Shown piece by piece: positions 1 through 64,000 of a stretch of 64,000 nt of DNA. The position numbers and the translations under genes were made by a program. Each line of letters begins with the position of its first letter. Within the stretch, counting starts at the first letter, position 1. The stretch lies in NCBI GenBank assembly GCA_964187785.1, contig OZ076409.1, positions 75,890,001 to 75,954,000 of the forward strand. The letters are read 5' to 3'. The stretch comes from Amphiscolops sp. MND2022 (taxonomy: Eukaryota). The notes beneath the pieces were generated by a model. That model searched no databases. It saw only the letters and a program-made list of their open reading frames with translations, and was not told the DNA's origin.

Positions 1-2
1 AG

Positions 3-1412
3 CAATTGCGCCCTCCACAAGGATCATTGACATGGTTGTCACCGAAGATGCTGACAAATTTTGATTTCCACTACTTTAAACACTATGTTCGAGCAAAGCC
101 TGGATTGTTGCGACAGATACTGACTAAATTAGATGAACTTGATATCAGCCCAATCGAAGCATCAAATATTGCAAAGGAAATTGTAGCCAATTGTAATATC
201 CATTCAACTTGGGACAATGTTGGTGACAACTTTGACATGCGTGTTTTCAGCACACGAGCCGCTGAAAAACAGGCTGTTACACATCATTTTGAAAAAATTC
301 TGGCTGACCAAAGTTGTGTAAATGTTGTGTTAACTGCTAATGATGAAGTGAGTTCTACTGGTGCATCAATTTGGCGTCCGGCAGGTGACATTGAACAAAA
401 AATCATCGATTCCACATCCATCACTCCCCGACAACTGCTCTTGTATAAGAAAGCGCTTCTCAGATTTACAGCCAACCTCCCCAACATTCAGGCTAGGCAA
501 GGCCAATTGTGCCTAATTTTGGAAATACCAACCGAAACAGCATCTTCTCTGGACGTTTGGATTGCACCACCAGGTTGCCGGACCGTCACAAATTTCGACG
601 AAAATAACCTCATTACATCTGGTTGGCGCAAAGTCTCTATTTCAAAAGTGTTTACACCTATAATGACTAACAACAACAAATTCCTAAGGAGATACTCTTT
701 CCCTCTCAAGAACTATGTGGCATCCACTATTCACAAATGCATTGGTGACACGTTCCCAAAGATTGTTACCAAAGTTTCACTTACGGACAAACATTACAAA
801 ATTTGGGAAAAAGAGCAACTTCTTGTGTTGTTGAGTAGAGTCAGTAAGCTCGACGACATAACGTTCGTAGGTGAAGAACACGAAATAGAATTAACTTTAA
901 CTGCTGCCATTCAGCAAAAGTCCTGCTGGGGAACTTTCATCAATAACCTTCTGGAAAAATTGGCCTGTACTCCCTCTGACCTGACGCCGCCAACACTCAA
1001 CCTCCTTTCTTCAAATATTGTACCTTGGAACATTGTCTTACCCGAAGACAATGTAGGCTTTGTGTATCTTCTGGTAAGCACGAAGATTCCGAATGTTTAT
1101 TTCATTGGAGAGGCTCTGGAAATTCGGCGAGAATTGAAAGTTATCAACTCTGGAAATGGCGCATCCGAAACACGCCCAATCGAACGAAGGCCATGGGCAA
1201 TCTTAGCATTTGCAACAGGTTTCAACACCGAAGATTCTTCCAGCAACAATACGCAAAGAAAATCGCTTGTATCGAAGATGAGAACGCAATTTACTTCCCT
1301 TGGATTAAACTTCACCACCGTGGAATTGTTTGAAACGTTCAAAGAATCAACGAGAACATATGCTGACGAACGTGATCTAAATTTGAGAGTTATCCAGTGT
1401 GGCAGTGTTTAG
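3..1412 (+). CDS. 5'-truncated PIF1-family (SF1B) DNA helicase with C-terminal GIY-YIG-like domain; probable C-terminus of a Helitron-like Rep/helicase protein
   Basis: The frame is open from the window edge. Recognisable PIF1 motifs occur in order: QLRPP (motif III, GDxxQLxP-like), FDFHYFKHYVR (motif IV-like), RYSFPLKNYVASTIHKCIGDT (motif V, cf. RxQFPLxxxxAxTIHKxQGxT) and QLLVLLSRV (motif VI, cf. QxYVALSRV). From 1056: GFVYLLVS..NVYFIGE..RR..NSGNGASET..RRPWAILAFATGF, resembling SLX1-type GIY-YIG domains. Confidence 0.85.
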   Translation, partial: QLRPPQGSLTWLSPKMLTNFDFHYFKHYVRAKPGLLRQILTKLDELDISPIEASNIAKEIVANCNIHSTWDNVGDNFDMRVFSTRAAEKQAVTHHFEKILADQSCVNVVLTANDEVSSTGASIWRPAGDIEQKIIDSTSITPRQLLLYKKALLRFTANLPNIQARQGQLCLILEIPTETASSLDVWIAPPGCRTVTNFDENNLITSGWRKVSISKVFTPIMTNNNKFLRRYSFPLKNYVASTIHKCIGDTFPKIVTKVSLTDKHYKIWEKEQLLVLLSRVSKLDDITFVGEEHEIELTLTAAIQQKSCWGTFINNLLEKLACTPSDLTPPTLNLLSSNIVPWNIVLPEDNVGFVYLLVSTKIPNVYFIGEALEIRRELKVINSGNGASETRPIERRPWAILAFATGFNTEDSSSNNTQRKSLVSKMRTQFTSLGLNFTTVELFETFKESTRTYADERDLNLRVIQCGSV

Positions 1413-1972
1413 TTCATTTGGGTTTACAAATATTACACTGTAGAAGTCTCTGAGAATGGACGATAGATGAAGCATGTGAGGTTGCCCCGGCCACGCAGTG
1501 AGCCGAGGGCAAGCTTTATTCAAACTATAGATGAACATCCTTTTTTGTTGAAAAGTTCTTTGATTATACTTTGCCTTTGCTCATTTTTTCAACGTTCCTT
1601 TGTAAATATATACTGATAAAATTGTCACCCGTTGATAATATTACCAGTTGACACTGAAGTTGACACCAGTCAAGAAAAAAAATAATTATCTGACTGGAAC
1701 AAAAAAAGACAAAAAAAACAAGATGGCAAGATTGTTGAAACAGTTCAATTCTTCAACTTCGATAATCTTTTCCTTAACATATTTTTACCATCACGTGGAG
1801 GGAAATAGAAAAACATTTCTACAGTTAATTAGTTCGAAAGAGAAAAATTAGACAGTATTTAGACGCAGTAGTGATGTTGTACATCGAAAGAAATGAAAAT
1901 GTGTCGAGAAACATAACTTTATTGTGTTTTTAGATAGCTTTGTCTTCAATCGAGACTGAAACAAGATTCAAA

Positions 1973-2894
1973 ATGCCCATCATTAATAAAGATTTGTCGG
2001 CAGATGAGGCAGCCACCAGAACAATCAGTAAATTAACAACGTGTGAACTCGATGAAGTGATGGAATCTAATGCAACGGATCGGAAGTACATGATTTGTAC
2101 ATTGCTTTACGCCAAAAAATGTGTGAAATCAGTATCGTATTTTAAACTAACGAATGGACAAAAGCAAAAACAGGAGGCTACATTTAACCGTTTTGTCCTT
2201 CTGGGAGTGATCGGAAAAGAGAAAGTAATGGCAATATTTACCTACACCCAACTAGAAAGCGCGGAGTTGTTGCGTTACTGTTCTGCATTACAACCAGGAA
2301 ATGCGTGCGCCTTAATACGCCCTAAATTCGATAACAAGTATATGGGATCATCATCCACTACCCCAATCATACTAACTTCTGAGCCACTAGTGCCTCTGAA
2401 CATCAAGAATTACCCTGATGTCAGCTGTCCAAGAATTGTATCATCACCGGACTTTCAACATTTCTACATGAAAACGAAAGATTTGAAGCTCGATAATATA
2501 GATGCCATTGGAAACGTGTGCAATGGGACCTTCTGCGATGGTCAACCGAAGGGCGACTGTCCTTGTTTAGAGGTCGACAACCGGAAAAGCAGCTGGATCA
2601 TTACTGCGGATGTGAAATGCAGTGGGTTGTATCACTCATCAAAAATACGATCAAAACGATTGATAACGGTATTCGCTCCCAAATGTAAGTCGGCGGACCC
2701 TAACAAAAGAGAATTTGATGTCCTTGATTTGGGCGATTGTATTGAAAACTGTGTTGAAGCAGTAAATGCCAAGAATGGATGGGAAATTTTCGGTTGGGTG
2801 AAACCAAACGAATCTGCTCTAGAGTTTACAAACTATGAATGCGACCTACACATTATACATCTTCAACCTATCGAAATTACAGATGTAGAGTCAG
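1973..2894 (+). CDS. ORF2 exon 1: Cys-rich protein of unknown function (predicted spliced product 366 aa)
   Basis: Long open frame 1940-2950 with first ATG at 1973 and a CNGTFCDGQPKGDCPC cluster. After the candidate donor CAG|GTAAAC at 2894/2895 the frame runs into T-rich, intron-like sequence (IFIFPVFTFFFR). Confidence 0.7.
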
Positions 2895-3184
2895 GTAAAC
2901 CTAAACTTCAAATATTTATTTTTCCAGTTTTTACTTTCTTTTTTCGCTAAAGTTCTAAATAATTTTCGACCAAAATATGTCTAGCAGAATCAAAATATAC
3001 ATTTTAACAGAATCTCAAACACAACGTTTAGTGTTATTAACAATTGTTTTCGCAAAAGACATGAACATTAATTTCACCTTGAACTATTATTTTACAACTT
3101 GAGACTAAAACTTACAGTCTTTCTTTTTTTCCCAACGTTATTTTTAAGATGACCGATAATTGACAAATGATAAATATACTTCAG

Positions 3185-3363
3185 ATGCATACAAAGCCTT
3201 GCAGTATAAGTTGCCCGAAACATCTGCCCCAGAAGTCGAAATGCCCGTCATAGCAACTACATCAGGAACAGCTTCGGTTCCAGCAACAGCTCCAGCAACA
3301 GCTCCAGAAACAGCTCCAGCAACAGCTCCACCAGATGAACAAGCAGCTTCGGTTGAAAGATGA
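3185..3363 (+). CDS. ORF2 exon 2 (predicted): Ala/Pro/Thr-rich C-terminal tail
   Basis: The acceptor TTCAG| at 3184 joins in phase 1 (G|AT = Asp) with the 2894 donor, giving ...TDVES-D-AYKALQYKLPET...ASVER*. The intron 2895-3184 is a 290-bp AT-rich GT..AG segment. Confidence 0.6.
3280..3330 (+). repeat. 12-bp coding minisatellite (CCAGCAACAGCT x ~4; PATA/PETA)
   Basis: Directly visible tandem copies. Confidence 0.85.
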
Positions 3364-3594
3364 AAATCGCATTATCAACTACGAAAAATGCAGAAATCAA
3401 GAGAAGTGACAATGAGCAAAAAACATTGATAGATTTAAAAATCTCGAAACATTTTGATTCAATAATGTTATAATGTGATCATAAAAAGATTGCAGAAAAA
3501 ATAATCTTGAAACCGGTAAAAGATTATAAATATCGTATTGTTATGTTCCTTTAGTTCATATTCTTGAAATAATGTTAATTTCTTATTTTCAAGA

Positions 3595-3600
3595 AATAAA
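3595..3600 (+). promoter_or_regulatory. Candidate polyadenylation signal (AATAAA) for ORF2
   Basis: AATAAA about 230 bp after the stop at 3363; AT-rich context makes a chance match possible. Confidence 0.3.
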
Positions 3601-3784
3601 AATTCACTTTTTCGTTCCCACAAGAAACTTGAATAGAGTGTTCATAGAAAAAATACGTATGTTCATAGACTAGTCAATATTTTCAATACAAATATCTGAA
3701 CTAGTCAAAATACTAATCTTTTCTTTGCTTTCACTCTGATATGACATTTGCTAAACGTTTGGTCCTTACAACATACACATGACT

Positions 3785-3896
3785 AACGTCAACGCCACAT
3801 ACTGTTACCAACGCCCACCGTCCGTAGGCATGCCGAGGCATGCCTTTCGACGACGTATGCCAAATACCATAAAACCGACGCGCACTCTCCCGCTAG
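3785..3896 (+). other. Conserved 3' terminus module (CAACGCC x2, hairpin, 45-50 nt spacer, CTAG); 47 copies in window
   Basis: AACGTCAACGCC..CAACGCCCACCGTCCGT-[A/G]GGCATGCC-GA-GGCATGCC[T/C]-TTCGACGAC..CTAG, present before every junction. Confidence 0.9.
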
Positions 3897-5164
3897 GTGG
3901 CCGTGTCTTTTCGACGTGCTTTTGCATCGAGGAGTGGGTAGGGCCCCGCGACGACCTAGAAGAATTGGATGCTCACCGAAACGTGCAGAATTCTACGAGA
4001 TCTCATAGTTTGAGCCATACGATTTTGCTGAAATTTGGCATGTGGCCTGGAATTGGTGAGTAGGTAAAACGTGTAGGAGGTGATTTTTCCCAAATTCCAC
4101 TCTGAGACGAGATATGGGCAAATAACGGTCCCAAAAATGGCAAAATTGCACTTTTTTCAACTTTGTCAGCCCATATCTCGTTCCCAGGTGCCCGGAGCGG
4201 GACGCGTTAAGCTGATTATAAACTCTAGGGTGTTGAGGCGGTACGGTGAACTTTGGCCCGTTCCGATCGGACTTGTAGTCTTGGAGAAATAACGGTATTT
4301 TTGGGAAATTTTTTCTAACGGTCCAGCTTATCTTTGCCATTTTTCGAAAATGTACTCGCCTAAAGGCCTCCCCCTGGCCGAATTTACTCCCAGCAAAACC
4401 ATTTGGCCCTAAATACGGAGTTTCAGCGTTCCAGCATTCCCGGGCGAAAAGTTGTGGGACTTGGAAAAATTTCAAAAATTTTCAAATTTTTTTTTTACGT
4501 TTTCCGGGCCCCCAATGAAGGGAAACGACCCCCCAACCCTTATTTTGAGTGAATGCATGTGGAAAGGCCATGGTTAGAGGAGAAAAATGCCGTTTAGATT
4601 GTCTTTCTATTTTAACTTGACATTGACTTATGACGTTTTGAATGTGATGTTAGGATGTGTGAGGCATGTGAAAAGTTGATGTTTTGAGTCTTTATCTCAT
4701 ATGAAAGCAATTGAGATGCACGCTGTCCTGCTCAAAACGTCTTTCGTTGTAGTTTTCCAGTGCACCAGAACCCTTTGGTGTCATTTGAACATACTTTTCT
4801 TCGGTTTATTAACATTTTTAATGTATTTATTCCAATTTTTATTATCTTATAGCTCAAAACAGTTGAGTACATTTCATCTCCCTTTCGGGGGAGATGAGAA
4901 TGTACTCGCTAAAGACCTAGCGCCATGACCAAAATTTGAAGCGCACGTTTTGTATCTTCTTACAGACTTGTTTTTGTATTTTTTCGGATTTTTCTAAAAA
5001 ATAATAATATACTTGAAATACATTACTTGACTTTACTACTACATTCCACCTCCAACGTCAACGCCCCCCTGCTTGCATCAACGCCCACCGTCCGTGGGCA
5101 TGCCGAGGCATGCCCTTCGACGACGTATGCCAAATGCCCAGTGCCACGCAGTCATTCTCGCTAG
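3897..5164 (+). mobile_element. Non-autonomous unit, subfamily A (starts GTGGCCGTGTCTTTTCG; 23 copies including variants and the final partial copy)
   Basis: 1268 bp, bounded by CTAG|GTG junctions, with the terminal hairpin at 5096-5115. Confidence 0.75.
4865..4907 (+). other. Conserved internal stem-loop (GAGTACATT-TCATCTCCC..GGGAGATGA-G-AATGTACTC), one per ~1.28-kb unit
   Basis: About 18-bp stem with a variable loop, retained in subfamilies A-G. Confidence 0.85.
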
Positions 5165-6452
5165 GTGCCGGGATTTCTATTCGATAAAGTATGTGGCGCG
5201 TGTGGGTAGGGTCCCTGGCGCGCTCTTGGGTATGGTGTTCACCAGCTAGGAAATAGGGGTCGATTTTTCGGGATCTCCTAAACTAGCCACACGATTTGGC
5301 TGAAATTTGGCACACGTACTCCCCTCGGCATGGGGAAGATGATTTCCTACTGACGTTTTTCCCGCAAAATTTTTTTTGTTGTCCAAAATAACGGTTTTTG
5401 GTGGAAAATTTTGAACTTTTTTTAAATTTCATCTCATATCTCGCCACGGGTTTACGCTAGCGCTTCAAAACCCTGCTAAAGAAAGCTTGCAAACTGTCTC
5501 AGGAATGCGGTGTGAAATTTTCAGCACAATCGAACTTAAACTCAAGGAGATATAGCGTTTTTCCGGAGCGGGGGGGTTTCATTTTTCTAACGGTCCAGCT
5601 TATCTTAGCCATTTTTTCGAAAATGTACTCGCCTAAAGACCTCCCCTGGCCGGTTTTATTCCCAGCAAAACCATTTGGCCCTAAATACGGAGTTTCAGCG
5701 TTCCAGCATTCCCGGGCGAAAAGTTGTGGGACTTAGAAAATTTCAAAAATTTTCAAAATTTTTTTTTTCCGTTTTCCGCCCTCCCCCCCTAGGGGAAATG
5801 ACCCCCCAACCAGTAATTTGAGTGAATTCATGTGGAAAGGCCATGTTTAGAGGAGAAAAATACCGTTTAGATCGTCTTTTTATCTTTATTCAACGTTGAC
5901 TTATGACGTTTTGAAGGTGATGTTTGGAGGTGTGAAGCACGTGAAAAGTAAACGTTATGAGTATTTATCTGATCTGAAAGCCATTGAGATGCAACCTGTT
6001 TTGCTCAAAACGTAATTCATATCAGTTTGGTAGTCAATCAACACCCTTTGTTGTCATTTGACATCTTTTTTTGTTGATATAAGAAAAAATTTCATGTATT
6101 TATTCATTTTTTTCTCATCAAATAACTTGAAACAGTTGAGTACATTCCATCCCCCCTTCACGGGGGAGATGAGAATGTACTCGCAAAAAGCCCCGAACTA
6201 CGGCCCTTACCTTCCTGAGCTACGCAGTATAAAGATTGCATATTGGTTCCGACATTTTGATAGAGTTATATCTTGGTAATCTGTCTGGGTATGCAGAAAA
6301 ACCAGCACGTGCTTTTTTATACCAAGTTGCTTACAACGACATTTATTTTATATCAACGCCCCCATATTTATCAACGCCCACCGTCCGTGGGCATGCCGAG
6401 GCATGCCCTTCGACGACGCGCACCAAAATATTCCCCGAGCGCGTTAGCCTAG
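5165..6452 (+). mobile_element. Non-autonomous unit, subfamily B (starts GTGCCGGGATTTCTATTCGATAAAG; 8 copies plus a variant at 20539)
   Basis: 1288 bp; other copies start at 7742, 19252, 38373, 48006, 51877, 54438, 62080. Confidence 0.75.
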
Positions 6453-7741
6453 GTGCCGGGATTTCCATTCGATAAGGAACTCTGCGCGTGTGGGTAGGGC
6501 CCCTGGCGCGCTCCTGTGTTTTGGGTTTTCCTACTCTAAATTCACACATCAGTTATCTCGGATCTCGAAAACTAGCCACACGATTTGGCTGAAATTTGGC
6601 ACACGTACCCCCCTCGGCACGGTGAAGATGATTTCCTTCTGACGTTTTTCCCGCTAAACATTTTTTGTTGACCAAAATAACGGTTTTTGGGGTAAAATTT
6701 TCAACTTTTTTTAAATTTCATCTTATATCTCGACACGGGTGCACGCTAGCGCTTCCAAACCTTGCTGACGAAAGTTTGCAAACTGTCTCAGGAATGCTGT
6801 GTGAAAATTTCAGCTCAATCGGACTTAAACTCGAGGAGATATAGCGTTTTTCCGGAGCGGGGGGGTTTCATTTTTCTAACGGTCCAGCTTATCTTTGCCA
6901 TTTTTTCGAAAATGCACTCGCCTAAAGGCCTCCCCTGGCCGGTTTTATTCCCAGCAAAACCATTTGGCCCTAAATACGGAGTTTCAGCGTTCCAGCATTC
7001 TCGGGCGAAAAGTTGTGGGACTTAGAAAATTTCAAAAAATTTCAAAAAATTTTTTTTTCGTTATTCGGGCCCCCAAAGTGGGGGAAAAGACCCCCCAACC
7101 AGTATATCAAGTGAATGCATGTGGAAAGGCCATGTTTAGAGGAGAAAAATGCCGTTTAGAACGTCTTTTTATCTTGGCTCAACGTTGACTTATGACGTTT
7201 TGAAGGTGATGTTTGGCGGTGTAAAGCAAGTGAATAGTAAACGTTATGAGTATTTATCTGATCTGAAAGCCATTGAGATGCAATATGATTGCTCAAAACG
7301 TAATTCATTGCAGTTTGGCAATCAATCAACACCCTTTGTTGTCGTTTGACATACTTTTTTGTTGTTAAAATAAAAAATTTTGTGTATTTATTCATTTTTT
7401 TCTCATCAAATAACTTGGAACAGTTGAGTACATTCCATCCCCCCCTTCCGGGGGAGATGAGAATGTACTCGCAAAAAGCACCGAACTACGGCCCTTACCT
7501 TCCCGAGCTACGCAGTATAAGGATTACATATTGGTTCCGACATTTTCATAGAGTTATATCTTGGTAATCTGTCTGGATATGCCGAAAAATCAGCACGTGC
7601 CTTTTAATACCAAGTTGCTCACAACGACAATTATTTTATATCAACGCCCCCATATTTATCAACGCCCCCCGTCCGTGGGCATGCCGAGGCATGCCCTTCG
7701 ACGACCCGCACCAAAATATGCGTTAGCGCGGTAGCCGCTAG
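6453..7741 (+). mobile_element. Non-autonomous unit, subfamily C (starts GTGCCGGGATTTCCATTCGATAAGG; 5 copies)
   Basis: 1289 bp; other copies start at 11596, 12883, 39659, 53165. The body is related to subfamily B. Confidence 0.75.
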
Positions 7742-9031
7742 GTGCCGGGATTTCTATTCGATAAAGTATGTGGCGCGCCTTGGGTAGGGTCCCTTGCGCG
7801 CTCTTGGGTATGGTGTTCACCAGCTAGGAAACAGGGGTCGATTTTTCGGGATCTCCTAAACTAGCCACACGATTTGGCTCAAATTTGGCACACGTACTCC
7901 CCTCGGCACGGTGAAGATGATTTCCTACTGACGTTTTTCCCGCAAAATTTTTTTTGTTGTCCAAAATAACGGTTTTTGGGGTAAAATTTTGAATTTTTTT
8001 TAAATTTTATCTTATATCTCGCCACCGGTTTACGCTAGCGCTTCAAAACCCTGCTAAAGAAAGCTTGCAAACTGTCTCAGGAATGCGGTGTGAAATTTTC
8101 AGCACAATCGGACTTGAACTCAAGGAGATATAGCGTTTTTCCGGAGCGGGGGGGTTTCATTTTTCTAACGGTCCAGCTTATCTTAGCCATTTTTTCGAAA
8201 ATGTACTCGCCTAAAGACCTCCCCTGGCCGGTTTTATTCCCAGCAAAACCATTTGGCCCTAAATACGGAGTTTCAGCGTTCCAGCATTCTCGGGCGAAAA
8301 GTTGTGGGACTTAGAAAAATTCAAAAATTTTCAAATTTTTTTTTTCGGTTTTCCGCCCTCCCCCCCGAGGGGAAAAGACCCCCCAACCAGTAATTTGAGT
8401 GAATTCATGTGGAAAGGCCATGTTTAGAGGAGAAAAATGCCGTTTAGAACGTCTTTTTATCTTGGCTCAACGTTGACTTATGACGTTTTGAAGGTGATGT
8501 TTGGAGGTGTAAAGCACGAGAATAGTAAACGTTATGAGTATTTATCTGATCTGAAAGCCATTGAGAAGCAATATGGTTTGCTCAAAACGTAATTCATTGC
8601 AGTTTGGCAGTCAATCATCACCCTTTGTTGTCGTTTGACATACTTTTTTGTTGTTATAATAAAACATTTTGTGTATTTATTCATTTTTTTCCCATCAAAT
8701 AACTTGAAACAGTTGAGTACATTCCATCCCCCCCTTCCGGGGGAGATGAGAATGTACTCGCAAAAAGCCCCGAACTACGGCCCTTACCTTCCCGAGCTAC
8801 GCAGTATAAGGATTACATATTGGTTCCGACATTTTCATAGAGTTATATCTTGGTAATCTGTCTGGATATGCACAAAAATCAGCACGTGCCTTTTAATACC
8901 AAGTTGCTCATAACGACAATTATTTTATACCAACGCCCCCATATTTATTAACGCCCCCCGTCCGTGGGCATGCCGAGGCATGCCCTTCGACGACCCGCAC
9001 CAAAATATACGTCGAGCGCGGTAGCAGCTAG

Positions 9032-10319
9032 GTGGCCGGAAATTTTTTTTTTCATCAAAATCTTTGCCATTGGGGGAGGGGCCCCGGATGGCCAGTAGTA
9101 CGGGATAGCTTCCTACCAAATCCAGATGGAAAAAACGTGATTTCGGAAACTAGCCGTCAGAATTTGCTCAAATTTTGCATACGGCTTCCTATGACAATCC
9201 TAAGAACTAATCCCTACTGGCATTTTGCCCAAAAAACGCAAAAAGTTGGTCAAAATCTTAGTTTTTTGGTCAAAAAATGGCGTTTTTTCGAAAAAAATTT
9301 TTTTCAGAGACAATTACTCGTAACTGGTTCACCCAGCGCAAAAACGCCTAGCTGATTTATTGTTGGGCACTTCATGAGGAGTGCGTATACAAATTTTCGT
9401 CCAGATCGGAAAAAAATTGACTAAGTATTAGCCGGAATTCGGACGCATTTTTTCGCAAATTTTTGAAAACCTAGTCTATCTCTGCCGTTTTTTGCCCAGA
9501 TTTTTTTCCAGGTCCTCTCCTAAAGGCCTCCCCTGGCCGGTTTACTTCCCAGAAAAACCATTTGGCCCTAAATACGGAGTTTCAGCGTTCTAGCATTCCC
9601 GGGCGAAAAGATGTGGGACTTAGAAAAAATTCAAAATTTTTCAAAAAATTTTTTTTTCGTTTTCCGGCCCCCCAATGAAGGGGAACGACCCCCCAACGAG
9701 GATTTTTGATGAATTCACGTGGAAAGGCCTTGTTTTGTGGAGAAAATTGCCGTTTAGAGCGACTTTTTATCTTAACTTGACGTTGACCTCTGTCGTTTTG
9801 AATTTGATTTTAGTATGTGTTGAGCATGTGAAAAGTTGATGATTTCAGTTGTTCTCTCGTGTTCAAGCCATTGAGATACAAGCGGTAGTGATCAAAATGT
9901 GATTTATCGCAATTTGGTGGTGCTTTTGGTTTATTTTGATTCTTTTAAATAAAAAGTTGTTCTTAATATATTTGGTGTATTGATTCAAATGTACAAGAAA
10001 CAGTTGAGTACATTTCATCTCCCCCCTTGTGGGGGAGATGAGGATGTACCCGCTAAATGACACGCACAATGGCCCAATTTTATTTTTATGCGACGTTTTC
10101 TAGGCTTTTGCGCAAGCCCACTAAAATTTAGACTGGTTTCCTTTTCTTTTACTCCAAAATTTTCCGTACTAACCACCTTACGCACCACCAGCTCAACGTA
10201 ACATCTGTAACGTCAACGCCACACACTCTCACTAACGCCCACCGTCCGTGGGCATGCCGAGGCATGCCCTTCGACGACGTATGCCAAATAGCGCCACAGG
10301 GCGCAAACTTGTCCGCTAG
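9032..10319 (+). mobile_element. Non-autonomous unit, subfamily D (starts GTGGCCGGAAATTTT)
   Basis: Divergent body; a second D-start unit lies at 17978-19251. Confidence 0.75.
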
Positions 10320-51900: not shown

Positions 51901-54900
51901 GTATGTGGCGCGCCTTGGGTAGGGTCCCTTGCGCGCTTTTGGGTATGGTGTTCACCAGCTAGGAAATAGGGGTCGATTTTTCGGGATCTCCTAAACTAGC
52001 CACACGATTTGGCTGAAATTTGGCACACGTACTCCCCTCGGCACGGTGAAGATGATTTCCTACTGACGTTTTTCCCGCAAAATTTTTTTTGTTGTCCAAA
52101 ATAACGGTTTTTGGGGTAAAATTTTGAATTTTTTTTAAATTTTATCTTATATCTCGCCACGGGTTTACGCTACCGCTTCAAAACCCTGCTAAAGAAAGCT
52201 TGCAAACTGTCTCTGGAATGCGGTGTGAAATTTTCAGCACAATCGGACTCAAACTCGGGGAGATATAGCGTTTTTCCGGAGCGGGGGGGTTTCATTTTTC
52301 TAACGGTCCAGCTTATCTTTGCCATTTTTTCGAAAATGCACTCGCCTAAAGGCCTCCCCTGGCCGGTTTTATTCCCAGCAAAACCATTTGGCCCTAAATA
52401 CGGAGTTTCAGCGTTCCAGCATTCCCGGGCGAAAAGTTGTGGGACTTAGAAAAATTCAAAAATTTTCAAAAAAAATTTTTTCCGTTATTTGGGCCCCCAA
52501 AGTGGGGGAAAAGACCCCCCAACCAGTGAGGCAAGTGAATGCATGTGCAAAGCCCTTGTTTAGAGGAGAAAAATGCCGTATAGAACGTCTTTTTATCTTG
52601 GCTCAACGTTGACTTATGACGTTTTGAAGGTGATGTTTGGAGGTGTAAAGCACGAGAATAGTAAACGTTATGAGTATTTATCTGATCTGAAAGCCATTGA
52701 GATGCAATATGGTTTGCTCAAAACGTAATTCATTGCAGTTTGGCAGTCAATAATCACCCTTTGTTGTCGTTTGACATACTTTTTTGTTGTTATAATAAAA
52801 AATTTTGTGTATTTATTCATTTTTTTCTCATCAAATAACTTGAAACAGTTGAGTACATTCCATCCCCCCCTTCCGGGGGAGATGAGAATGTACTCGCGAA
52901 AAGCCCCGAACTACGGCCCTTACCTTCCCGAGCTACGCAGTATAAGGATTACATATTGGTTCCGACATTTTCATAGAGTTAAATCTTGGTAATCTGTCTG
53001 GATATGCAGAAAAATCAGCACGTGCCTTTTAATACCAAGTTGCTTACAACGACAATTATTTTATATCAACGCCCCCATATTTATCAACGCCCCCCGTCCG
53101 TGGGCATGCCGAGGCATGCCCTTCGACGACGTATACCAAGATATGTTCGAGCGCGTTAGCCTAGGTGCCGGGATTTCCATTCGATAAGGAATTCTGCGCG
53201 TGTGGGTAGGGCCCCTGGCGCGCTCCTGTGTTTTCGGTTTTCCTACTCCTAAATAGACCCCCTGAATTCCGGGATCTCCTAAACTATCCATACGATTTGG
53301 CTGAAATTTGGCACACGTACCCCCCTCGGCACGGTGAAGATGATTTCCTACTGACGTTTTTCCCGCTAAACATTTTTTGTTGACCAAAATAACGGTTTTT
53401 GGGGTAAAATTTTGAACTTTTTTTAAATTTCATCTTATATCTCGCCACGGGTACACGCTAGCGCTTCCAAACCTTGCTGACGAAAGTTTGCAAACTGTCT
53501 CAGGAATGCTGTGTGAAATTTTCAGCTCAATCGGACTTAAACTCGAGGAGATATAGCGTTTTCCCGGAGCGGGGGGGTTTCAATTTTCTAACGGTCCAGC
53601 TTATCTTTGCCATTTTTTCGAAAATGCACTCGCCTAAAGGCCTCCCCTGGCCGGTTTTATTCCCAACAAAACCATTTGGCCCTAAATACGGAGTTTCAGC
53701 GTTCCAGCATTCCCGGGCGAAAAGTTGTGGGACTTAGAAAAGTTCAAAAATTTTCAAAAAAAATTTTTTCCGTTATTTGGGCCCTCAAAGTGGGGGAAAA
53801 GACCCCCCAACCAGTAAAGCAAGTGAATGCATGTGGAAAGCCCTTGTTTAGACGAGAAAAATGCCGTCTAGAACGTCTTTTTATCTTAACTTGACATTGA
53901 CTTTTGTCGTTTTGAAGGTGACCGTTAGATACGGAAAATTGATGTTTTGAGTATTTATCCCATCTGAAAGCCATTGAGATACAACATGTTTTGCTCAAAA
54001 CGTGTTTCATTGCAGTTTCGCTGTCCATTATCACCCTTTGGTGTCTTTTCACGTAATTTTCGTTTCTATAATAACAATTTTTTTGTGTATTTGTTCATTT
54101 TATTCTCATCAAATAACTTGAAACAGTTGAGTACATTCCATCTCCCTTCCCGGGGGAGATGAGAATGTACTCGCTAAAGGTCAGGAACTACGGTCTATAT
54201 CTTCCACAACACAAATGGGATTGCAAATGGTTTCAGTTTGTCGCAGAAAACTTCTTTTTGCCCTCTGTGACTCGACAAAATGAACGTTTCTTACTTACTT
54301 TGAAACTCAGCATACCACAACTCATCTCTAACGTCAGCGCCCCCCTACTTGCATCAACGCCCACCGTCCGTGGGCATGCCGAGGCATGCCCTTCGACGAC
54401 GTATACCAAGATATACCTGGAGCGCGGTAGCCGCTAGGTGCCGGGATTTCTATTCGATAAAGTATGTGGCGCGCCTTGGGTAGGGTCCCTTGCGCGCTTT
54501 TGGGTATGGTGTTCACCAGCTAGGAAATAGGGGTCGATTTTTCGGGATCTCCTAAACTAGCCACACGATTTGGCTGAAATTTGGCACACGTACTCCCCTC
54601 GGCACGGTGAAGATGATTTCCTACTGACGTTTTTCCCGCAAAATTTTTTTTGTTGTCCAAAATAACGGTTTTTGGGGTAAAATTTTGAATTTTTTTTAAA
54701 TTTTATCTTATATCTCGCCACGGGTTTACGCTACCGCTTCAAAACCCTGCTAAAGAAAGCTTGCAAACTGTCTCTGGAATGCGGTGTGAAATTTTCAGCA
54801 CAATCGGACTCAAACTCGGGGAGATATAGCGTTTTTCCGGAGCGGGGGGGTTTCATTTTTCTAACGGTCCAGCTTATCTTTGCCATTTTTTCGAAAATGC

Positions 54901-57900
54901 ACTCGCCTAAAGGCCTCCCCTGGCCGGTTTTATTCCCAGCAAAACCATTTGGCCCTAAATACGGAGTTTCAGCGTTCCAGCATTCCCGGGCGAAAAGTTG
55001 TGGGACTTAGAAAAATTCAAAAATTTTCAAAAAAAATTTTTTCCGTTATTTGGGCCCCCAAAGTGGGGGAAAAGACCCCCCAACCAGTGAGGCAAGTGAA
55101 TGCATGTGCAAAGCCCTTGTTTAGAGGAGAAAAATGCCGTATAGAACGTCTTTTTATCTTGGCTCAACGTTGACTTATGACGTTTTGAAGGTGATGTTTG
55201 GAGGTGTAAAGCACGAGAATAGTAAACGTTATGAGTATTTATCTGATCTGAAAGCCATTGAGATGCAATATGGTTTGCTCAAAACGTAATTCATTGCAGT
55301 TTGGCAGTCAATAATCACCCTTTGTTGTCGTTTGACATACTTTTTTGTTGTTATAATAAAAAATTTTGTGTATTTATTCATTTTTTTCTCATCAAATAAC
55401 TTGAAACAGTTGAGTACATTCCATCCCCCCCTTCCGGGGGAGATGAGAATGTACTCGCGAAAAGCCCCGAACTACGGCCCTTACCTTCCCGAGCTACGCA
55501 GTATAAGGATTACATATTGGTTCCGACATTTTCATAGAGTTAAATCTTGGTAATCTGTCTGGATATGCAGAAAAATCAGCACGTGCCTTTTAATACCAAG
55601 TTGCTTACAACGACAATTATTTTATATCAACGCCCCCATATTTATCAACGCCCCCCGTCCGTGGGCATGCCGAGGCATGCCCTTCGACGACGTATACCAA
55701 GATATGTTCGAGCGCGTTAGCCTAGGTGGCCGTGTCTTTTCGACGTGCTTTTGCATCGAGGAGTGGGTAGGGCCCCGCGACGACCTAGAAGAATTGGATG
55801 CTCACCGAAACGTGCAGAATTCTACGAGATCTCATAGTTTGAGCCATACGATTTTGCTGAAATTTGGCATGTGGCCTGGAATTGGTGAGTAGGTAAAACG
55901 TGTAGGAGGTGATTTTTCCCAAATTCCACTGTGAGACGAGATATGGGCAAATAACGGTCCCAAAAATGGCAAAAATGCACTTTTTTCAAGTTTGTCAGCC
56001 CATATCTCGTTCCCAGGTGCCCGGAGCGGGACGCGTTAAGCTGATTATAAACTCTAGGGTGTTGAGGCTGTACGGGGAAGTCAGGCCCGTTCCGATCGGA
56101 CTTGTAGTCTTGGAGAAATAACGGTATTTTTGGGGAACCTTTTCTAACGGTCCAGCTTATCTTTGCCATTTTTTCGAAAATGTACTCGCCTAAAGGCCTT
56201 CCCCTGGCCAAATTTACTCCCAGCAAAACCATTTGGCCCTAAATACGGAGTTTCAGCGTTCCAGCATTCCCGGGCGAAAAGTTGTGGGACTTGGAAAATT
56301 TTCAAAAATTTTCAAAAAATTTTTTTTTCGTTTTCCGGGCCCCCAATGAAGGGGAAACGACCCCCAACCAGTATTTTGAGTGAATTCATGTGGAAAGCCC
56401 TTGTTTAGACGAGAAAAATACCGTTTAGAACATCTTTTTATCTTGACTCAACGTTGACTTATGACGTTTTGAATGTGATGTAAGGATGTAGGAGGCATGT
56501 GATAAGTTGATGTTTTGAGTCTTTATCTCATATGAAAGCGGTTGAGATGCAAGCTGTCCTGCTCAAAACGTCTTTCGTTGTAATTTTCCAGTGCACCAAT
56601 ACCCTTTGGTGTCATATAAACATACTTTTCGTCGATATATTAACAATTTTAATGTATTTATTCCCATTTTTATTATCTTATAACTCAAAACAGTTGAGTA
56701 CATTTCATCTCCCTTTCGGGGGAGATGAGAATGTACTCGCTAAAGACCTAGCGCCATGACCAAAAGTTTGAAACCCACGTTTTTTATCTTCTTACAGACT
56801 TGTTTTTGTATTTTTTCGGAATTTTTTAAAAATTAATATACTTGAAATACATTACTTGACTTTACTACTACAATCCACCTCCAACGTCAACGCCCCCCTG
56901 CTTGCATCAACGCCCACCGTCCGTGGGCATGCCGAGGCATGCCCTTCGACGACGTATGCCAAATGCCCAGTGCCACGCAGTCATTATCGCTAGGTGGCCG
57001 TGTCTTTTCGACGTGCTTTTGCATCGAGGAGTGGGTAGGGCCCCGCGACGACCTAGAAGAATTGGATGCTCACCGAAACGTGCAGAATTCTACGAGATCT
57101 CATAGTTTGAGCCATACGATTTTTCTGAAATTTGGCATGTGGCCTGGAATTGGTGAGTAGGTAAAACGTGTAGGAGGTGATTTTTCCCAAATTCCACTGT
57201 GAGACGAGATATGGGCAAATAACGGTCCCAAAAATGGCAAAAATGCACTTTTTTCAAATTTGTCAGCCCATATCTCGTTCCCAGGTGCCCGGAGCGGGAC
57301 GCCTTAAGCTGATTATAAACTCTAGGGTGTTGAGGCTGTACGGGGAAGTCAGGCCCGTTCCGATCGGACTTGTAGTCTTGGAGAAATAACGGTATTTTTG
57401 GGGAACCTTTTCTAACGGTCCAGCTTATCTTTGCCATTTTTTCGAAAATGTACTCGCCTAAAGGCCTCCCCCTGGCCGAATTTACTCCCAGCAAAACCAT
57501 TTGGCCCTAAATACGGAGTTTCAGCGTTCCAGCATTCCCGGGCGAAAAGTTGTGGGACTTGGAAAATTTTCAAAAACTTTCAAATTTTTTTTTTTTCGTT
57601 TTCCGGGCCCCCAATGAAGGGGAAACGACCCCCCAACCAGTATTTTGAGTGAATTCATGTGGAAAGCCCTTGTTTTGACGAGAAAAATACCGTTTAGAAC
57701 ATCTTTTTATCTTGACTCAACGTTGACTTATGACGTTTTGAATGTGATGTAAGGATGTAGGAGGCAAGTGATAAGTTGATGTTTTGAGTCTTTATCTCAT
57801 ATGAAAGCGGTTGAGATGCAAGCTGTCCTGCTCAAAACGTCTTTCGTTGTAATTTTCCAGTGCACCAATACCCTTTGGTGTCATATAAACATACTTTTTG

Positions 57901-60900
57901 TCGATATATTAACAATTTTAATGTATTTATTCCAATTTTTATTATCTTATAACTCAAAACAGTTGAGTACATTTCATCTCCCTTTCGGGGGAGATGAGAA
58001 TGTACTCGCTAAAGACCTAGCGCCATGGCCAAAAGTTTGAAACCCACGTTTTTTATCTTCTTACAGACTTGTTTTTGTATTTTTTCGGAATTTTTTAAAA
58101 ATTAATATACTTGAAATACATTACTTGACTTTACTACTACAACCCACCTCCAACGACAACGCCCCCCTGCTTGCATCAACGCCCACCGTCCGTGGGCATG
58201 CCGAGGCATGCCCTTCGACGACGTATGCCAAATGCCCAGTGCCACGCAGTCATTATCGCTAGGTGGCCGTGTCTTTTCGACGTGCTTTTGCATCGAGGAG
58301 TGGGTAGGGCCCCGCGACGACCTAGAAGAATTGGATGCTCACCGAAACGTGCAGAATTCTACGAGATCTCATAGTTTGAGCCATACGATTTTTCTGAAAT
58401 TTGGCATGTGGCCTGGAATTGGTGAGTAGGTAAAACGTGTAGGAGGTAATTTTTCCCAAATTCCATTGTGAGAGGAGATATGGGCAAATAACGGTCCCAA
58501 AAATGGCAAAATTGCACTTTTTTCAACTTTGTCAGCCCATATCTCGTTCCCAGGTGCCCGGAGCGGGACGCGTTAAGCTGATTATAAACTCTAGGGTGTT
58601 GAGGCGGTACGGTGAATTTGAGCCCGTTCCGATCGGACTTGTAGTCTTGGAGAAATAACGGTATTTTTGGGAATTTTTTTCTAACGGTCCAGCTTATCTT
58701 TGCCATTTTTTCGAAAATGTACTCGCCTAAAGGCCTCCCCCTGGCCGAATTTACTCCCAGCAAAACCATTTGGCCCTAAATACGGAGTTTCAGCGTTCCA
58801 GCATTCGCGGGCGAAAAGTTGTGGGACTTGGAAAAATTTCAAAAATTTTCAAATTTTTTTTTTACGTTTTCCGGGCCCCCAATGAAGGGGAAACGACCCC
58901 CCAACCCTTATTTTGAGTGAATGCATGTGGAAAGGCCATGGTTAGAGGAGAAAAATGCCGTTTAGATTGTCTTTCTATTTTAACTTGACATTGACTTATG
59001 ACGTTTTGAATGTGATGTTAGGATGTGTGAGGCATGTGAAAAGTTGATGTTTTGAGTCTTTATCTCATATGAAAGCAATTGAGATGCACGCTGTCCTGCT
59101 CAAAACGTCTTTCGTTGTAGTTTTCCAGTGCACCAGAACCCTTTGGTGTCATTTGAACATACTTTTCTTCGGTTTATTAACATTTTTAATGTATTTATTC
59201 CAATTTTTATTATCTTATAACTCAAAACAGTTGAGTACATTTCATCTCCCTTTCGGGGGAGATGAGAATGTACTCGCTAAAGACCTAGCGCCATGGCCAA
59301 AAGTTTGAAACCCACGTTTTTTATCTTCTTACAGACTTGTTTTTGTATTTTTTCGGAATTTTTTAAAAATTAATATACTTGAAATACATTACTTGACTTT
59401 ACTACTACAACCCACCTCCAACGACAACGCCCCCCTGCTTGCATCAACGCCCACCGTCCGTGGGCATGCCGAGGCATGCCCTTCGACGACGTATGCCAAA
59501 TGCCCAGTGCCACGCAGTCATTATCGCTAGGTGGCCGTGTCTTTTCGACGTGCTTTTGCATTGAGGAGTGGGTAGGGCCCCGCGACGACCTAGAAGAATT
59601 GGATGCTCACCGAAACGTGCAGAATTCTACGAGATCTCATAGTTTGAGCCATACGATTTTTCTGAAATTTGGCATGTGGCCTGGAATTGGTGAGTAGGTA
59701 AAACGTGTAGAAGGTAATTTTTCCCAAATTCCACTGTGAGAGGAGATATGGGCAAATAACGGACCCAAAAATGGCAAAAGTGCACATTTTTCAACTTTGT
59801 CAGCCAATATCTCTTTTCCAGGTGCCCGTAGCGTTCCGCACGTGGACATCAATATTGCTCAGCGCTGTTGGAGGAGTGCGTGGACAAATTTTGGTTTGAA
59901 TCGGACTTAAACTTGACGAGAAATTAACGGTTTTTTGGGCGTTTCCGGGGTAAATTTTTTAACGGTCCAGCTTATCTTTGCCATTTTTTCGAAAATGTAC
60001 ATGCCTAAAGGCCTCCCCCTGGCCGAATTTACTCCCAGCAAACCCATTTGGCCCTAAATACGGAGTTTCAGCGTTCCAGCATTCCGGGGCGGAAAGTTGT
60101 GGGACTTGGAAAAATTTCAAAATTTTTTCAAAAATTTTTTTCCCGTTTTCCGGGCCCCCAATGAAGGGGAACGACCCCCCAACCAGTATTTTGAGTGAAT
60201 TCATGTGGAACGCCCATGTTTGGAGGAGAAAAATGCCGTTTAGCACATCTTTTTATCTTAACTTGACATTGACTTATTTCGTTTTGAATGTGATGTTAGG
60301 ATATATGAAGCATGTTAAAAGTTGAAGTTTTGAGTCTTTATCTCATCGGAAAACCATTGAGATACAAGCAGTTTTGCTAAAAACGATTTTCATTGTAGGT
60401 TAGCAGAGTATTAGTACACTTTGATGTCATTTGAGTATTTTTTTCTTCTATATAATAACTGTTTTTATGTATTTATTCCAATTTATCTCATCTTTTAACA
60501 TCAAGCAGTTGAGTACATTTCATCTCCCTTTCGGGGGAGATGAGAATGTACTCGCTAAAAAACTAATGCTTTGGCGCCAATGTTTGGATGGGAAGTTTTC
60601 TATGCTTTGAAAAAAGTTATTTTTAATTACTTGATTTTTTAAAACAATAATTAACATGAAGTACATTACTTGCTCCTACTACTACCACCATACATCTCTA
60701 ACGTCAACGCCCCCTGCTTGCATCAACGCCCCATCGTCCGTGGGCATGCCGAGGCATGCCCTTCGACGACGTATGCCAAATGCCCAGTGCCACGCAGTCT
60801 TTCCCCGCTAGGTGGCCGTGTCTTTTCGACGTGCTTTTGCATTGAGGAGTGGGTAGGGCCCCGCGACGACCTAGAAGAATTGGATGCTCACCGAAACGTG

Positions 60901-63900
60901 CAGAATTCTACGAGATCTCATAGTTTGAGCCATACGATTTTTCTGAAATTTGGCATGTGGCCTGGAATTGGTGAGTAGGTAAAACGTGTAGGAGGTGATT
61001 TTTCCCAAATTCCACTGTGAGACGAGATATGGGCAAATAACGGTCCCAAAAATGGCAAAAATGCACTTTTTTCAACTTTGTCAGCCCATATCTCGTTCCC
61101 AGGTGCCCGGAGCGGGACGCGTTAAGCTGATTATAAACTCTAGGGTGTTGAGGCTGTACGGGGAAGTCAGGCCCGTTCCGATCGGACTTGTAGTCTTGGA
61201 GAAATAACGGTATTTTTGGGGAACCTTTTCTAACGGTCCAGCTTATCTTTGCCATTTTTTCGAAAATGTACTCGCCTAAAGGCCTCCCCCTGGCCGAATT
61301 TACTCCCAGCAAAACCATTTGGCCCTAAATACGGAGTTTCAGCGTTCCAGCATTCCCGGGCGAAAAGTTGTGGGACTTGGAAAATTTTCAAAAATGTTCA
61401 AAATTTTTTTTTTCGTTTTCCGGGCCCCCAATGAAGGGGAAACGACCCCCCAACCAGTATTTTGAGTGAATTCATGTGGAAAGCCCTTGTTTTGACGAGA
61501 AAAGTACCGTTTAGAACATCTTTTTATCTTGACTCAACGTTGACTTATGACGTTTTGAATGTGATGTAAGGATGTAGGAGGCATGTGATAAGTTGATGTT
61601 TTGAGTCTTTATCTCATATGAAAGCGGTTGAGATGCAAGCTGTCCTGCTCAAAACGTCTTTCGTTGTAATTTTCCAGTGCACCAATACCCTTTGGTGTCA
61701 TATAAACATACTTTTCGTCGATATATTAACAATTTTAATGTATTTATTCCAATTTTTATTATCTTTTAACTCAAAACAGTTGAGTACATTTCATCTCCCT
61801 TTCGGGGGAGATGAGAATGTACTCGCTAAAGACCTAGCGCCATGACCAAAAGTTTGAAACCCGCGTTTTTTATCTTCTTACAGACTTGTTTTTGTATTTT
61901 TTCGGAATTTTTTAAAAATTAATATACTTGAAATACATTACTTGACTTTACTACTACAATCCACCTCCAACGTCAACGCCCCCTTGCTTGCATCAACGCC
62001 CACCGTCCGTGGGCATGCCGAGGCATGCCCTTCGACGACGTATGCCAAATGCCCAGTGCCACGCAGTCATTATCGCTAGGTGCCGGGATTTCTATTCGAT
62101 AAAGTATGTGGCGCGCCTTGGGTAGGGTCCCTTGCGCGCTCTTGGGTATGGTGTTCACCAGCTAGGAAATAGGGGTCGATTTTTCGGGATCTCCTAAACT
62201 AGCCACACGATTTGGCTGAAATTTGGCACACGTACTCCCCTCGGCATGGTGAAGATGATTCCCTACTAGCGTTTTGCTCGAAAAATTTTTTTTGTTGTCC
62301 AAAATAACGGTTTTTGGGGTAAAATTTTGAATTTTTTTTAAATTTTATCTTATATCTCGCCACGGGTTTACGCTAGCGCTTCAAGACCCTGCTAAAGAAA
62401 GCTTGCAAACTGTCTCAGGAATGCGGTGTGAAATTTTCAGCTCAATCGGACTTAAACTCAGGGAGATATAGCGTTTTTCCGGAGCGGGGGGGTTTCATTT
62501 TTCTAACGGTCCAGCTTATCTTTGCCATTTTTTCGAAAATGCACTCGCCTAAAGGCCTCCCCTGGCCGGTTTTATTCCCAGCAAAACCATTTGGCCCTAA
62601 ATACGGAGTTTCAGCGTTCCAGCATTCCCGGGCGAAAAGTTGTGGGACTTAGAAAGTTTCAAAAATTTTCAAAAAAAAATTTTTCCGTTTTCCGCCCTCC
62701 CCCCCTAGGGGAAAAGACCCCCCAACCAGTAATTTGAGTGAATTCATGTGGAAAGGCCATGTTTGGAGGAGAAAAATACCGTTTAGATCGTCTTTTTATC
62801 TTGGCTCAACGTTGACTTATGACGTTTTGAAGGTGATGTTTGGAGAAGTAAAGCACGTGAAATGTAAACGTTATGAGTATTTATATGATCTTAAAGCCAT
62901 TGAGATGCAATCTGTTTTGCTCAAAACGTAATTCATATCCGTTTGGTAGTCAATCAACACCCTTTGTTGTCATTTGACATCTTTTTTTGTTGATATAAGA
63001 AAAAATTTTGTGTATTTATTCATTTTTTTCTCATCAAATAACTTGAAACAGTTGAGTACATTCCATCCCCCCTTCACGGGGGAGATGAGAATGTACTCGC
63101 AAAAAGCCCCAAACTACGGCCCTTACCTTCCTGAGCTACGCAGTATAAAGATTGCATATTGGTTCCGACATTTTGATAGAGTTATATCTTGGTAATCTGT
63201 CTGGGTATGCAGAAAAACCAGCACGTGCTTTTTTATACCAAGTTGCTCACAACGACATTTATTTTATATCAACGCCCCCATATTTATCAACGCCCCCCGT
63301 CCGTGGGCATGCCGAGGCATGCCCTTCGACGACGTATACCAAAATATGTTCGAGCGCGTTAGCCTAGGTGGCCGTGTCTTTTCGACGTGCTTTTGCATCG
63401 AGGAGTGGGTAGGGCCCCGCGACGACCTAGAAGAATTGGATGCTCACCGAAACGTGCAGAATTCTACGAGATCTCATAGTTTGAGCCATACGATTTTGCT
63501 GAAATTTGGCATGTGGCCTGGAATTGGTGAGTAGGTAAAACGTGTAGGAGGTGATTTTTCCCAAATTCCACTGTGAGACGAGATATGGGCAAATAACGGT
63601 CCCAAAAATGGCAAAAATGCACTTTTTTCAACTTTGTCAGCCCATATCTCGTTCCCAGGTGCCCGGAGCGGGACGCGTTAAGCTGATTATAAACTCTAGG
63701 GTGTTGAGGCTGTACGGGGAAGTCAGGCCCGTTCCGATCGGACTTGTAGTCTTGGAGAAATAACGGTATTTTTGGGGAACCTTTTCTAACGGTCCAGCTT
63801 ATCTTTGCCATTTTTTCGAAAATGTACTCGCCTAAAGGCCTCCCCCTGGCCGAATTTACTCCCAGCAAAACCATTTGGCCCTAAATACGGAGTTTCAGCG

Positions 63901-64000
63901 TTCCAGCATTCCCGGGCGAAAAGTTGTGGGACTTGGAAAATTTTCAAAAATTTTCAAAATTTTTTTTTTCGTTTTCCGGGCCCCCAATGAAGGGGAAACG

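Follow-up and report, generated by a model that had tools for sequence, protein, structure and literature searches.

Transposons of the Helitron-like superfamily encode a Y2-HUH Rep fused to a PIF1/SF1B helicase and leave no target-site duplication. Members of the HLE1 group (Helraiser) begin with TC and insert between A and T, while the HLE2 group (Helentron/Helitron2, proto-Helentron) uses a T/T target; transposition by peeling and circularisation has been shown for Helraiser (PMC5876387). In the prokaryotic IS91 family (IS91, IS801, IS1294), a helicase-free Y2-HUH protein directs oriented insertion at a tetranucleotide, again with no duplication, and the targets given for it are CTTG, GTTC, GTCC, GTAC and CTCG (PMC13181058). 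Here we examine a stretch of 64,000 nucleotides from the genome of Amphiscolops sp. MND2022 (assembly GCA_964187785.1, 1.07 Gb; contig OZ076409.1, hereafter C1, positions 75,890,001-75,954,000, + strand), called the window below, in which a divergent Helitron-like element and a long series of non-coding units are joined head to tail. We estimate at about 75% the probability that the clade represented by this element grows its arrays by insertion of single units at existing element-element joints.

The string CTAGGTG occurs 47 times on the + strand of the window (at 3893, 5161 and onwards to 63364) and not at all on the - strand. At every joint the same motif, which bears a palindrome, comes before and GTG(G/C) after, without any spacer. 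An earlier note on this DNA had described 47 such joints bounding 46 whole units, which the motif count bears out, and had given a 47-letter order of 5' types, which agrees with the printed joints when the two are compared by eye. The window opens inside an autonomous element of 12,052 bp, of which it holds the 3' portion (1..3896, + strand); the 5' end is 8,156 bp outside the window, upstream, at C1:75,881,845. The first joint, between the element's 3' end and unit 1 (3893..3899, +), fits the host target consensus CTWG^DT discussed below. There follow 46 complete non-autonomous units (3897..63367, +), delimited by joint positions and alignment, which are 1,267-1,292 bp long except for one of 1,971 bp, and then a 47th unit, incomplete because the window ends within it (63368..64000, +). 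Pairwise identity of aligned units ranges from 41% to 100%, and a divergence limit of 15% sorts them into 8 clusters, one of 3% into 21. They contain only short incidental frames (<170 amino acids), and have sequence in common with autonomous elements over ~750-800 bp at the 5' end and ~50-100 bp at the 3' end. The array runs beyond the window on both sides, and its downstream end is at C1:76,005,438. The exact 27-nt terminal motif has 4,923 copies in the genome and its reversed control none, so the pattern in the window is far beyond chance.

The 12,052-bp element adjoins a 1,267-bp unit: its initial GTG follows that unit's CTAG directly, the kind of 5' end that the earlier note had anticipated. 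Its transposase, P0001, is a protein of 2,327 amino acids in which a Cys-rich N-terminus of ~900 residues is followed by a Y2-HUH Rep, a PIF1 helicase and a C-terminal SLX1-like GIY-YIG domain. The Pfam domains Helitron_like_N (E 8.6e-8) and PIF1 (E 1.3e-8) are both past the cut-off; Rep motifs I-III, with H1107/H1109 (HUH) and Y1278/Y1282 (Y-x3-Y), are kept across 30 homologues; and the structure model of the Rep (pLDDT 79) finds its top structural match in Helraiser 7LCC (Z 13.5, root-mean-square deviation 3.7, 215 aligned residues, 18% identity), the runner-up reaching Z 7.3. Domains, motifs and fold match thus agree that the HUH-Y2 Rep expected by the earlier note is present upstream of the window. 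The C-terminal 469 amino acids of P0001, covering the end of the PIF1 helicase and the nuclease-like tail, fall inside the window (3..1412, +) and are delineated by an open reading frame (ORF), Pfam and profiles.

The tail and a second ORF are additions to the earlier account. The GIY-YIG domain (1056..1235, +) is weak and partly degenerate in the window copy, which on its own gives E 0.16, below the cut-off, but it is clear in relatives: the family profile matches SLX1 with E 3e-12, and the domain is present in 17 of the 18 homologues scanned. The tail of the window family (1056-1412) lacks the glutamate that most relatives keep; given this loss and the weak match, the nuclease of the window family may be inactive. 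The missing glutamate suggests that the nuclease is decaying while near-identical copies of the family are still present. The second ORF, ORF2 (1973..2950, +), encodes 325 amino acids modelled as tandem OB folds with a Cys cluster. Foldseek comparison of the model with RPA70 and LEF-3 (best E 4e-6 to 2e-5, with low template modelling scores of 0.25-0.29) makes the product a candidate single-strand-binding, RPA-like protein. Homologues of ORF2 adjoin the Rep-helicase fusion (RepHel) in 9 of 33 metagenome loci, some of which are the same element. A 12-bp minisatellite of 4.3 copies lies 3' of ORF2 (window 3279-3330) and may belong to another exon of the gene.

Three more 12-kb copies, ~99.8-100% identical, were found at C1:71.02, 75.69 and 75.96 Mb. 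A second autonomous family, represented by an element of 14,716 bp at C1:75.977-75.992 Mb, resides in the array of the window and has the same ends, with a Rep only 33% identical; both ends were checked for the 12-kb family and for this one 14.7-kb element. Its RepHel extends over several frames, owing to introns or breaks, and its 5' end resembles the commonest non-coding lineage. Genome-wide there are at least 123 Rep matches at 31-100% identity, many in open frames of more than 2,000 amino acids. Thirty-four of them, at 33-100% identity and many with long open frames, lie at C1:70.56-76.46 Mb, all on the + strand; this region is possibly a 6-Mb landing pad, or a centromeric or heterochromatic block. 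Further clusters are seen near contig ends, at C2:102-104 Mb and C3:2.4-3.9 Mb.

An element of this kind has the form GTG…CTAG, inserts in a fixed orientation, and carries one hairpin close to each end. The 3' hairpin has a near-invariant 8-bp stem; in the autonomous element it is located at 3826..3845 (+), ~50 nt before the terminal CTAG, and the same motif ends every unit in the window. The 5' hairpin, exemplified by 5196..5223 (+), stands ~36-47 nt from the 5' end and combines a conserved core, GGG(T/G)AGGG(T/C)CC, with stem sequences that vary by lineage. Compared with flank-shuffled controls, 48 of the 53 distinct ends show better folding; z-scores for folding of whole ends are modest (-0.25 to -2.7).

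The host tetramer preceding solo copies and array starts is CTAG or CTTG, rarely CTCG or CTGG, and once GTCC; a genome pattern search of starts returned 12 cases of CTTG and 4 of CTCG (n=16). Eleven array-end loci with no 5' end recovered in the DNA fetched are excluded from the list of left flanks. Since founders use this range of host tetramers, and sister families end in CTGG or CTTG, the CTAG/GTG site is not invariant, contrary to the earlier note. On the other side of the insertion, T is found at position +2 in 24 of 25 host 3' junctions (two of them paralogous), compared to 380 of 1,302 (29%) in the background; 30 loci had been examined in a search that excluded G at the first position, and 5 were dropped as intra-array. 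One G-start host junction, seen separately, has no T at +2. The boundaries of insertion are fixed by empty paralogues of two insertions, at two distinct loci for L086 and at three for L088, and in the latter case the element retains its terminal CTAG although the tetramer contributed by the host is CTTG. Judged by these sites, there is no target duplication, host bases are not added to the element, and the target is roughly CTWG^DT. The element's own tail-head joint, CTAG^GT, satisfies the same target as so derived. A 4-bp target duplication was considered and rejected, as copies at CTTG targets end in CTAG; and a supposed empty site for L083/L096/L102 was dropped, as its copies are paralogous and no left end could be located for the insertion.

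Throughout the genome, the great majority of ends are found at such joints: 4,609 of the 4,923 3' motifs (~94%) are followed by CTAGGTG and 35 by CTAG and a base other than G, with the remaining 279 unclassified. The earlier note had declared beforehand that mostly dispersed copies would speak against its proposal, and the copies are not mostly dispersed. In a sample of 106 kb, most of it host DNA, CTWG^DT has a density of 2.7 per kb, which extrapolates to millions of sites, so the pentamer alone cannot explain the dominance of arrays. We parsed 241 units from 12 contiguous stretches, ~5% of the total, and these form 57 clusters at 90% identity. Among them are 30 pairs of twins identical at 99.5% or more. 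Copying of blocks predicts that nearly all flanks of such twins would be common, yet in 54 flank comparisons a neighbour was never equally identical (shuffled null 0.4). Nor do twins stand side by side: 0 of 229 adjacent parsed pairs reach 99.5%, and 2 reach 99%. No two of the four near-identical 12-kb copies have the same neighbour, either upstream or downstream. In the window, unit 11 (16709..17977, +) and unit 27 (37104-38372) are 99.8% identical but differ in both the preceding and the following neighbour, and alignment reveals identical twins at 51877-53164 and 54438-55725 with one different unit between them (51877..55725, +). The parsed units, 404 kb altogether, include 906 internal decoy targets, none with an insertion seen; 240 of the 241 end at a recognisable terminus, the exception being two units with a missed start; and no reversed elements are found in 11 of the 12 stretches. 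As far as the sampled sequences tell, then, young copies have unrelated neighbours on either side, homology stops at the joint, and bare target pentamers inside arrays are ignored. The twin and neighbour test within the genome thus supports the unit-wise insertion at existing joints that the earlier note had put forward.

Other observations weigh against this interpretation. The stretch at C1:23.97 Mb has reversed units beside a 200-N gap. Adjacency of lineages is non-random, with 100 of 229 adjacent pairs belonging to the same lineage against a null of 61, and neighbour sharing exceeds its null at lower thresholds (174 vs 54.5 at 98%, 10 vs 5.3 at 99%); older block duplications, local homogenisation or lineage-specific targeting could account for the excess. 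Mosaic units number 7 of 142 in the two main lineages, and gene conversion could yield same-lineage twins without transposition. Everything is drawn from the sequence of one assembly, and with 241 of ~4,600 units parsed, block copies with partners outside the sample would be missed. Moreover, neither the 3' hairpin nor a head-to-tail joint was found at the 33 loci of metagenome relatives, which are on short contigs. The adjacency of lineages has no upstream versus downstream asymmetry (22/44 vs 25/45). The clustering of lineages, the sharing of neighbours at 98-99% and the mosaic units indicate that recombination also acts on the arrays.

Such recombination could in principle be the main force. 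Turnover of the satellite type, in which a few double insertions seed dimers, while unequal exchange, deletion and gene conversion build and shuffle the arrays and the transposase has a minor part, follows a known route from transposable-element dimers to arrays (PMC5932611), and would make sense of the mosaics, the excess of neighbour sharing, the patches of single lineages and the repeated tuples of 3-4 units made of the two commonest types. Unequal exchange copies blocks, though, and the youngest pairs share no flanks and have no adjacent twins; the arrays remain heterogeneous; 12-kb elements sit between unrelated neighbours, with identity that, in the only pair parsed in full, stops 3-7 nt beyond the joint; twins are found across chromosomes (C1/C2, 99.8%); and an 8-unit array in host DNA has six unit types among its 7 parsed units. 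We therefore regard turnover of this kind as an unlikely source of the arrays. Insertion confined to a chromatin domain, or to the vicinity of the donor, at a 5-bp target and with copies elsewhere removed by selection, would need no recognition of the joint. It accords with the clustering of autonomous copies in a few Mb-scale regions, and with the 22 of 30 twin pairs that lie within the same stretch, several of them 2-5 units apart (which the sampling favours). It does not explain why 906 decoys, as opposed to 241 joints, were spared, why nested or reversed insertions are essentially absent, or why all 34 Rep matches at C1:70.56-76.46 Mb are on one strand, and as a substitute for joint insertion we think it more unlikely still; regional targeting may act together with joint insertion without replacing it.

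Rolling-circle read-through, in which terminators are missed, so that concatemers or blocks of several units are copied and go in as one, has precedents: tandem head-to-tail Helitron arrays of plants and bats have been so attributed (PMC5876387), and bypass of the terminator is known in Helitrons and IS91 (PMC13181058, PMC6431247). In our sample there is one partial two-unit match in order between two arrays (99.2%, 98.3%), and both of its units match other positions equally well. Read-through predicts adjacent identical copies or shared order, which the twin test and the adjacent pairs do not display, and same-type adjacency at 3% divergence is at the level of chance (12 vs 11.5); this seems the least probable of the three. 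Taken jointly, the absence of shared flanks, of adjacent twins and of insertions at decoys leaves both block duplication and concatemer read-through a poor fit.

Helraiser and IS91 offer a model for the insertion of single units at joints. In this picture the Y2-HUH domain would nick the top strand at the 5' joint of a unit, the PIF1 domain would peel the strand away, the OB protein would coat it, and cleavage at the 3' hairpin and CTAG would close a one-unit circle. The chromosomal joint, with both hairpins around CTAG^GT, would resemble the joint of such a circle, and therefore the transposase would prefer it as a target. Each insertion would leave two joints open to further use; new arrays would start from the rare unit that enters a naked host site; and occasional recombination between like units would make chimaeras and probably delete blocks. 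A role for GIY-YIG as a flap or branch resolver is our guess. We infer the circles, the nicking chemistry, current activity, and any safe-harbour benefit to host or element.

By its transposase the element is a member of the Helitron-like superfamily, with both the fused RepHel and the absence of duplication, and in its termini and target it departs from both HLE1 and HLE2. The Helitron label of the earlier note accordingly stands at the level of the superfamily, and fails for canonical Helitrons, as there is no 5' TC and no A/T target, and the RepHel is distant. With HLE1 the element shares Y2-HUH Rep-PIF1, the 3' hairpin followed by CTAG (which fits CTRR), a downstream RPA-like gene, non-autonomous partners, and tandem copies, which are known in that group as well. 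Where HLE1 begins with TC, all 47 joints of the window have GTG, at a boundary fixed by empty sites; insertion is after the G of CTAG/CTTG and before A, T or G; and the extra 5' hairpin, the N-terminus, the in-frame SLX1-like tail and the gathering of ~94% of ends in mixed arrays set it further apart. HLE2 resembles our elements in its RepHel and extra C-terminal nuclease, and in the OTU domain found in some relatives here; a GIY-YIG domain was reported once in an HLE2 of Sphagnum (PMC11417382). Unlike in HLE2, a T/T target is not seen at the flanks of 12 solo or small insertions, short terminal inverted repeats are not evident in the printed ends inspected by eye, and DUF6570 and AP endonuclease were detected neither in P0001 nor in any of the 18 homologues scanned, although a language-model look-up listed DUF6570-bearing clusters among the look-alikes. 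OTU protease domains occur at the N-terminus, in the same ORF, in P0019 and P0122 (2 of the 18).

The target rule is closest to that of IS91. Subterminal palindromes at both ends and a terminal tetranucleotide that resembles the target are further likenesses, and the targets CTTG, CTCG and GTCC are in common; GTTC, the second main target of IS91, was not seen among 11 matches here (4 control matches). In contrast to the helicase-free prokaryotic Y2 protein, ours is a eukaryotic, helicase-fused Rep of the Helitron type, and large mixed arrays are not described for IS91 in the available part of PMC13181058. Replitrons (PMC10288648), also HUH transposons of eukaryotes, resemble our elements in their specific orientation, their terminal hairpin and what look like short direct repeats; they differ in being Y1, HUQ and helicase-free, and the 4-bp "repeat" here is made of host target and element end, and is not element-borne.

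Chains formed by transposable elements offer another comparison. HeT-A, TART and TAHRE form head-to-tail telomeric chains at chromosome ends. Double-insertion tandems of the P element, R1 and hobo, as well as the telomeric chains of Terminon, arise where insertion keeps or regenerates the target and gives head-to-tail chains (PMC6431247, PMC5932611). Those systems depend on duplicated host targets or on chromosome ends, and most of them are dimers that exchange has since amplified, whereas the arrays here are interstitial or subterminal, extend to hundreds of units of many families, and apparently grow by one unit at a time. In integrons, heterogeneous cassettes in one orientation are arrayed at a short core, through single-strand hairpin substrates and circular units. 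The arrays of Amphiscolops have heterogeneous units, one orientation, short-core joints, hairpins and, presumably, circular units; the units are non-coding and without cargo genes, so "integron-like", as the earlier note put it, is an analogy in geometry only. Unlike in integrons, there is no sign of a privileged attI-like site, insertion being apparently possible at any joint, and a domain scan of 7 ORFs detected no integrase of the tyrosine-recombinase family.

P0001 has 53 full-length relatives; at E<=0.001 its matches comprise 526 cluster representatives, 150 of them listed; a search for shorter homologues gave only 17 fragments. Named hosts are the tunicate Styela clava and Perkinsus olseni, and further relatives come from metagenomes. 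In a Rep profile search, 55 clade members score at least 218 bits, and the next protein, a Pif1_2B-bearing RepHel, scores 42. Helraiser was not matched at E<=1 in a search with the single P0001 sequence, and matches the family profile at 9e-21, ranking below bacterial and fungal Pif1. By profile scores and domain content the clade appears distinct and lies far from Helraiser; it could be one of the unclassified clusters of HELIANO (PMC11417382). The strict 5' hairpin core was found, among 26 of the 33 metagenome loci, in one pair (L188/L189), upstream of RepHel, and a looser pattern applied to all 33 added L180; distant relatives with 26-27% protein identity thus keep a similar core (L189:160-240, L180:9010-9100), and L189 has GTAC-GT at about the expected distance from it. 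Among viral contigs, 49 pattern matches yielded no confirmed relatives.

On balance we favour, with less assurance than joint insertion itself, a broader proposal: that these elements make up a third major Helitron-like branch, marked by RepHel-GIY-YIG, an RPA-like ORF and an IS91-type target; that their transposase treats the joint as a reusable recombination site; that dozens of autonomous families, deeply diverged, and non-coding dependants share self-assembling landing pads of single polarity and up to several Mb; and that satellite-scale DNA is produced by serial insertion and not by unequal exchange, the transposase being in effect a natural safe-harbour integrase. In the open-access literature (Repbase and most subscription papers being outside this scope), the clade, its target rule and its type of array are apparently undescribed. 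Helitron tandems, clustered Helitrons and double-insertion dimers are already known; heterogeneous multi-family arrays at a regenerated joint are apparently new. If this is true, transposons could give rise to megabase tandem DNA by a route independent of concatemers and of unequal crossing-over, and the intact near-identical autonomous copies and the defined joint substrate make this long-standing question testable. It would also add to eukaryotic rolling-circle transposons a widespread and largely unannotated group with a target rule like that of bacterial IS91, and may explain how many intact diverged families persist in one genome. A transposase that chooses a structured joint of ~130 nt, regenerated with each insertion, would be of interest for serial, orientation-fixed stacking of genes.

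Several smaller features of the arrays and their surroundings may be added. The 1,971-bp unit of the window (40947..42917, +) belongs to a 2-kb lineage common in other arrays and found also as solo copies. A sister non-coding group, with members of ~1.05 and 4.9 kb at C1:37.94-38.08 and 75.75-75.81 Mb, ends in CCACTGG and lacks the 3' palindrome; it has the 5' hairpin in common with the main group and is found in the same arrays, often as runs. Internal CTAG-(A/G/T)-T in the 241 units occurs 22 times on the transposed strand and 244 times on the other, a skew that could reflect selection against false ends, although the units are related and the counts not independent. The L086 solo copy (310/2289) is inserted inside the anticodon loop of a tRNA-like repeat, and ARAGORN reports the empty copies L157:1482-1562 and 1740-1820 as tRNAs of undetermined type. 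At C4:37.52 Mb, - strand (L094:3377, 4993), the left host flank and the 5' part of an element are tandemly duplicated (~1.6 kb) before a complete copy. Finally, at C1786:390,000-403,000 and C8:60.097-60.106 Mb internal pieces are amplified alone, namely a helicase/GIY-YIG segment (~1.4 kb, 71-74% identical) and an ORF2 segment (~0.9 kb).

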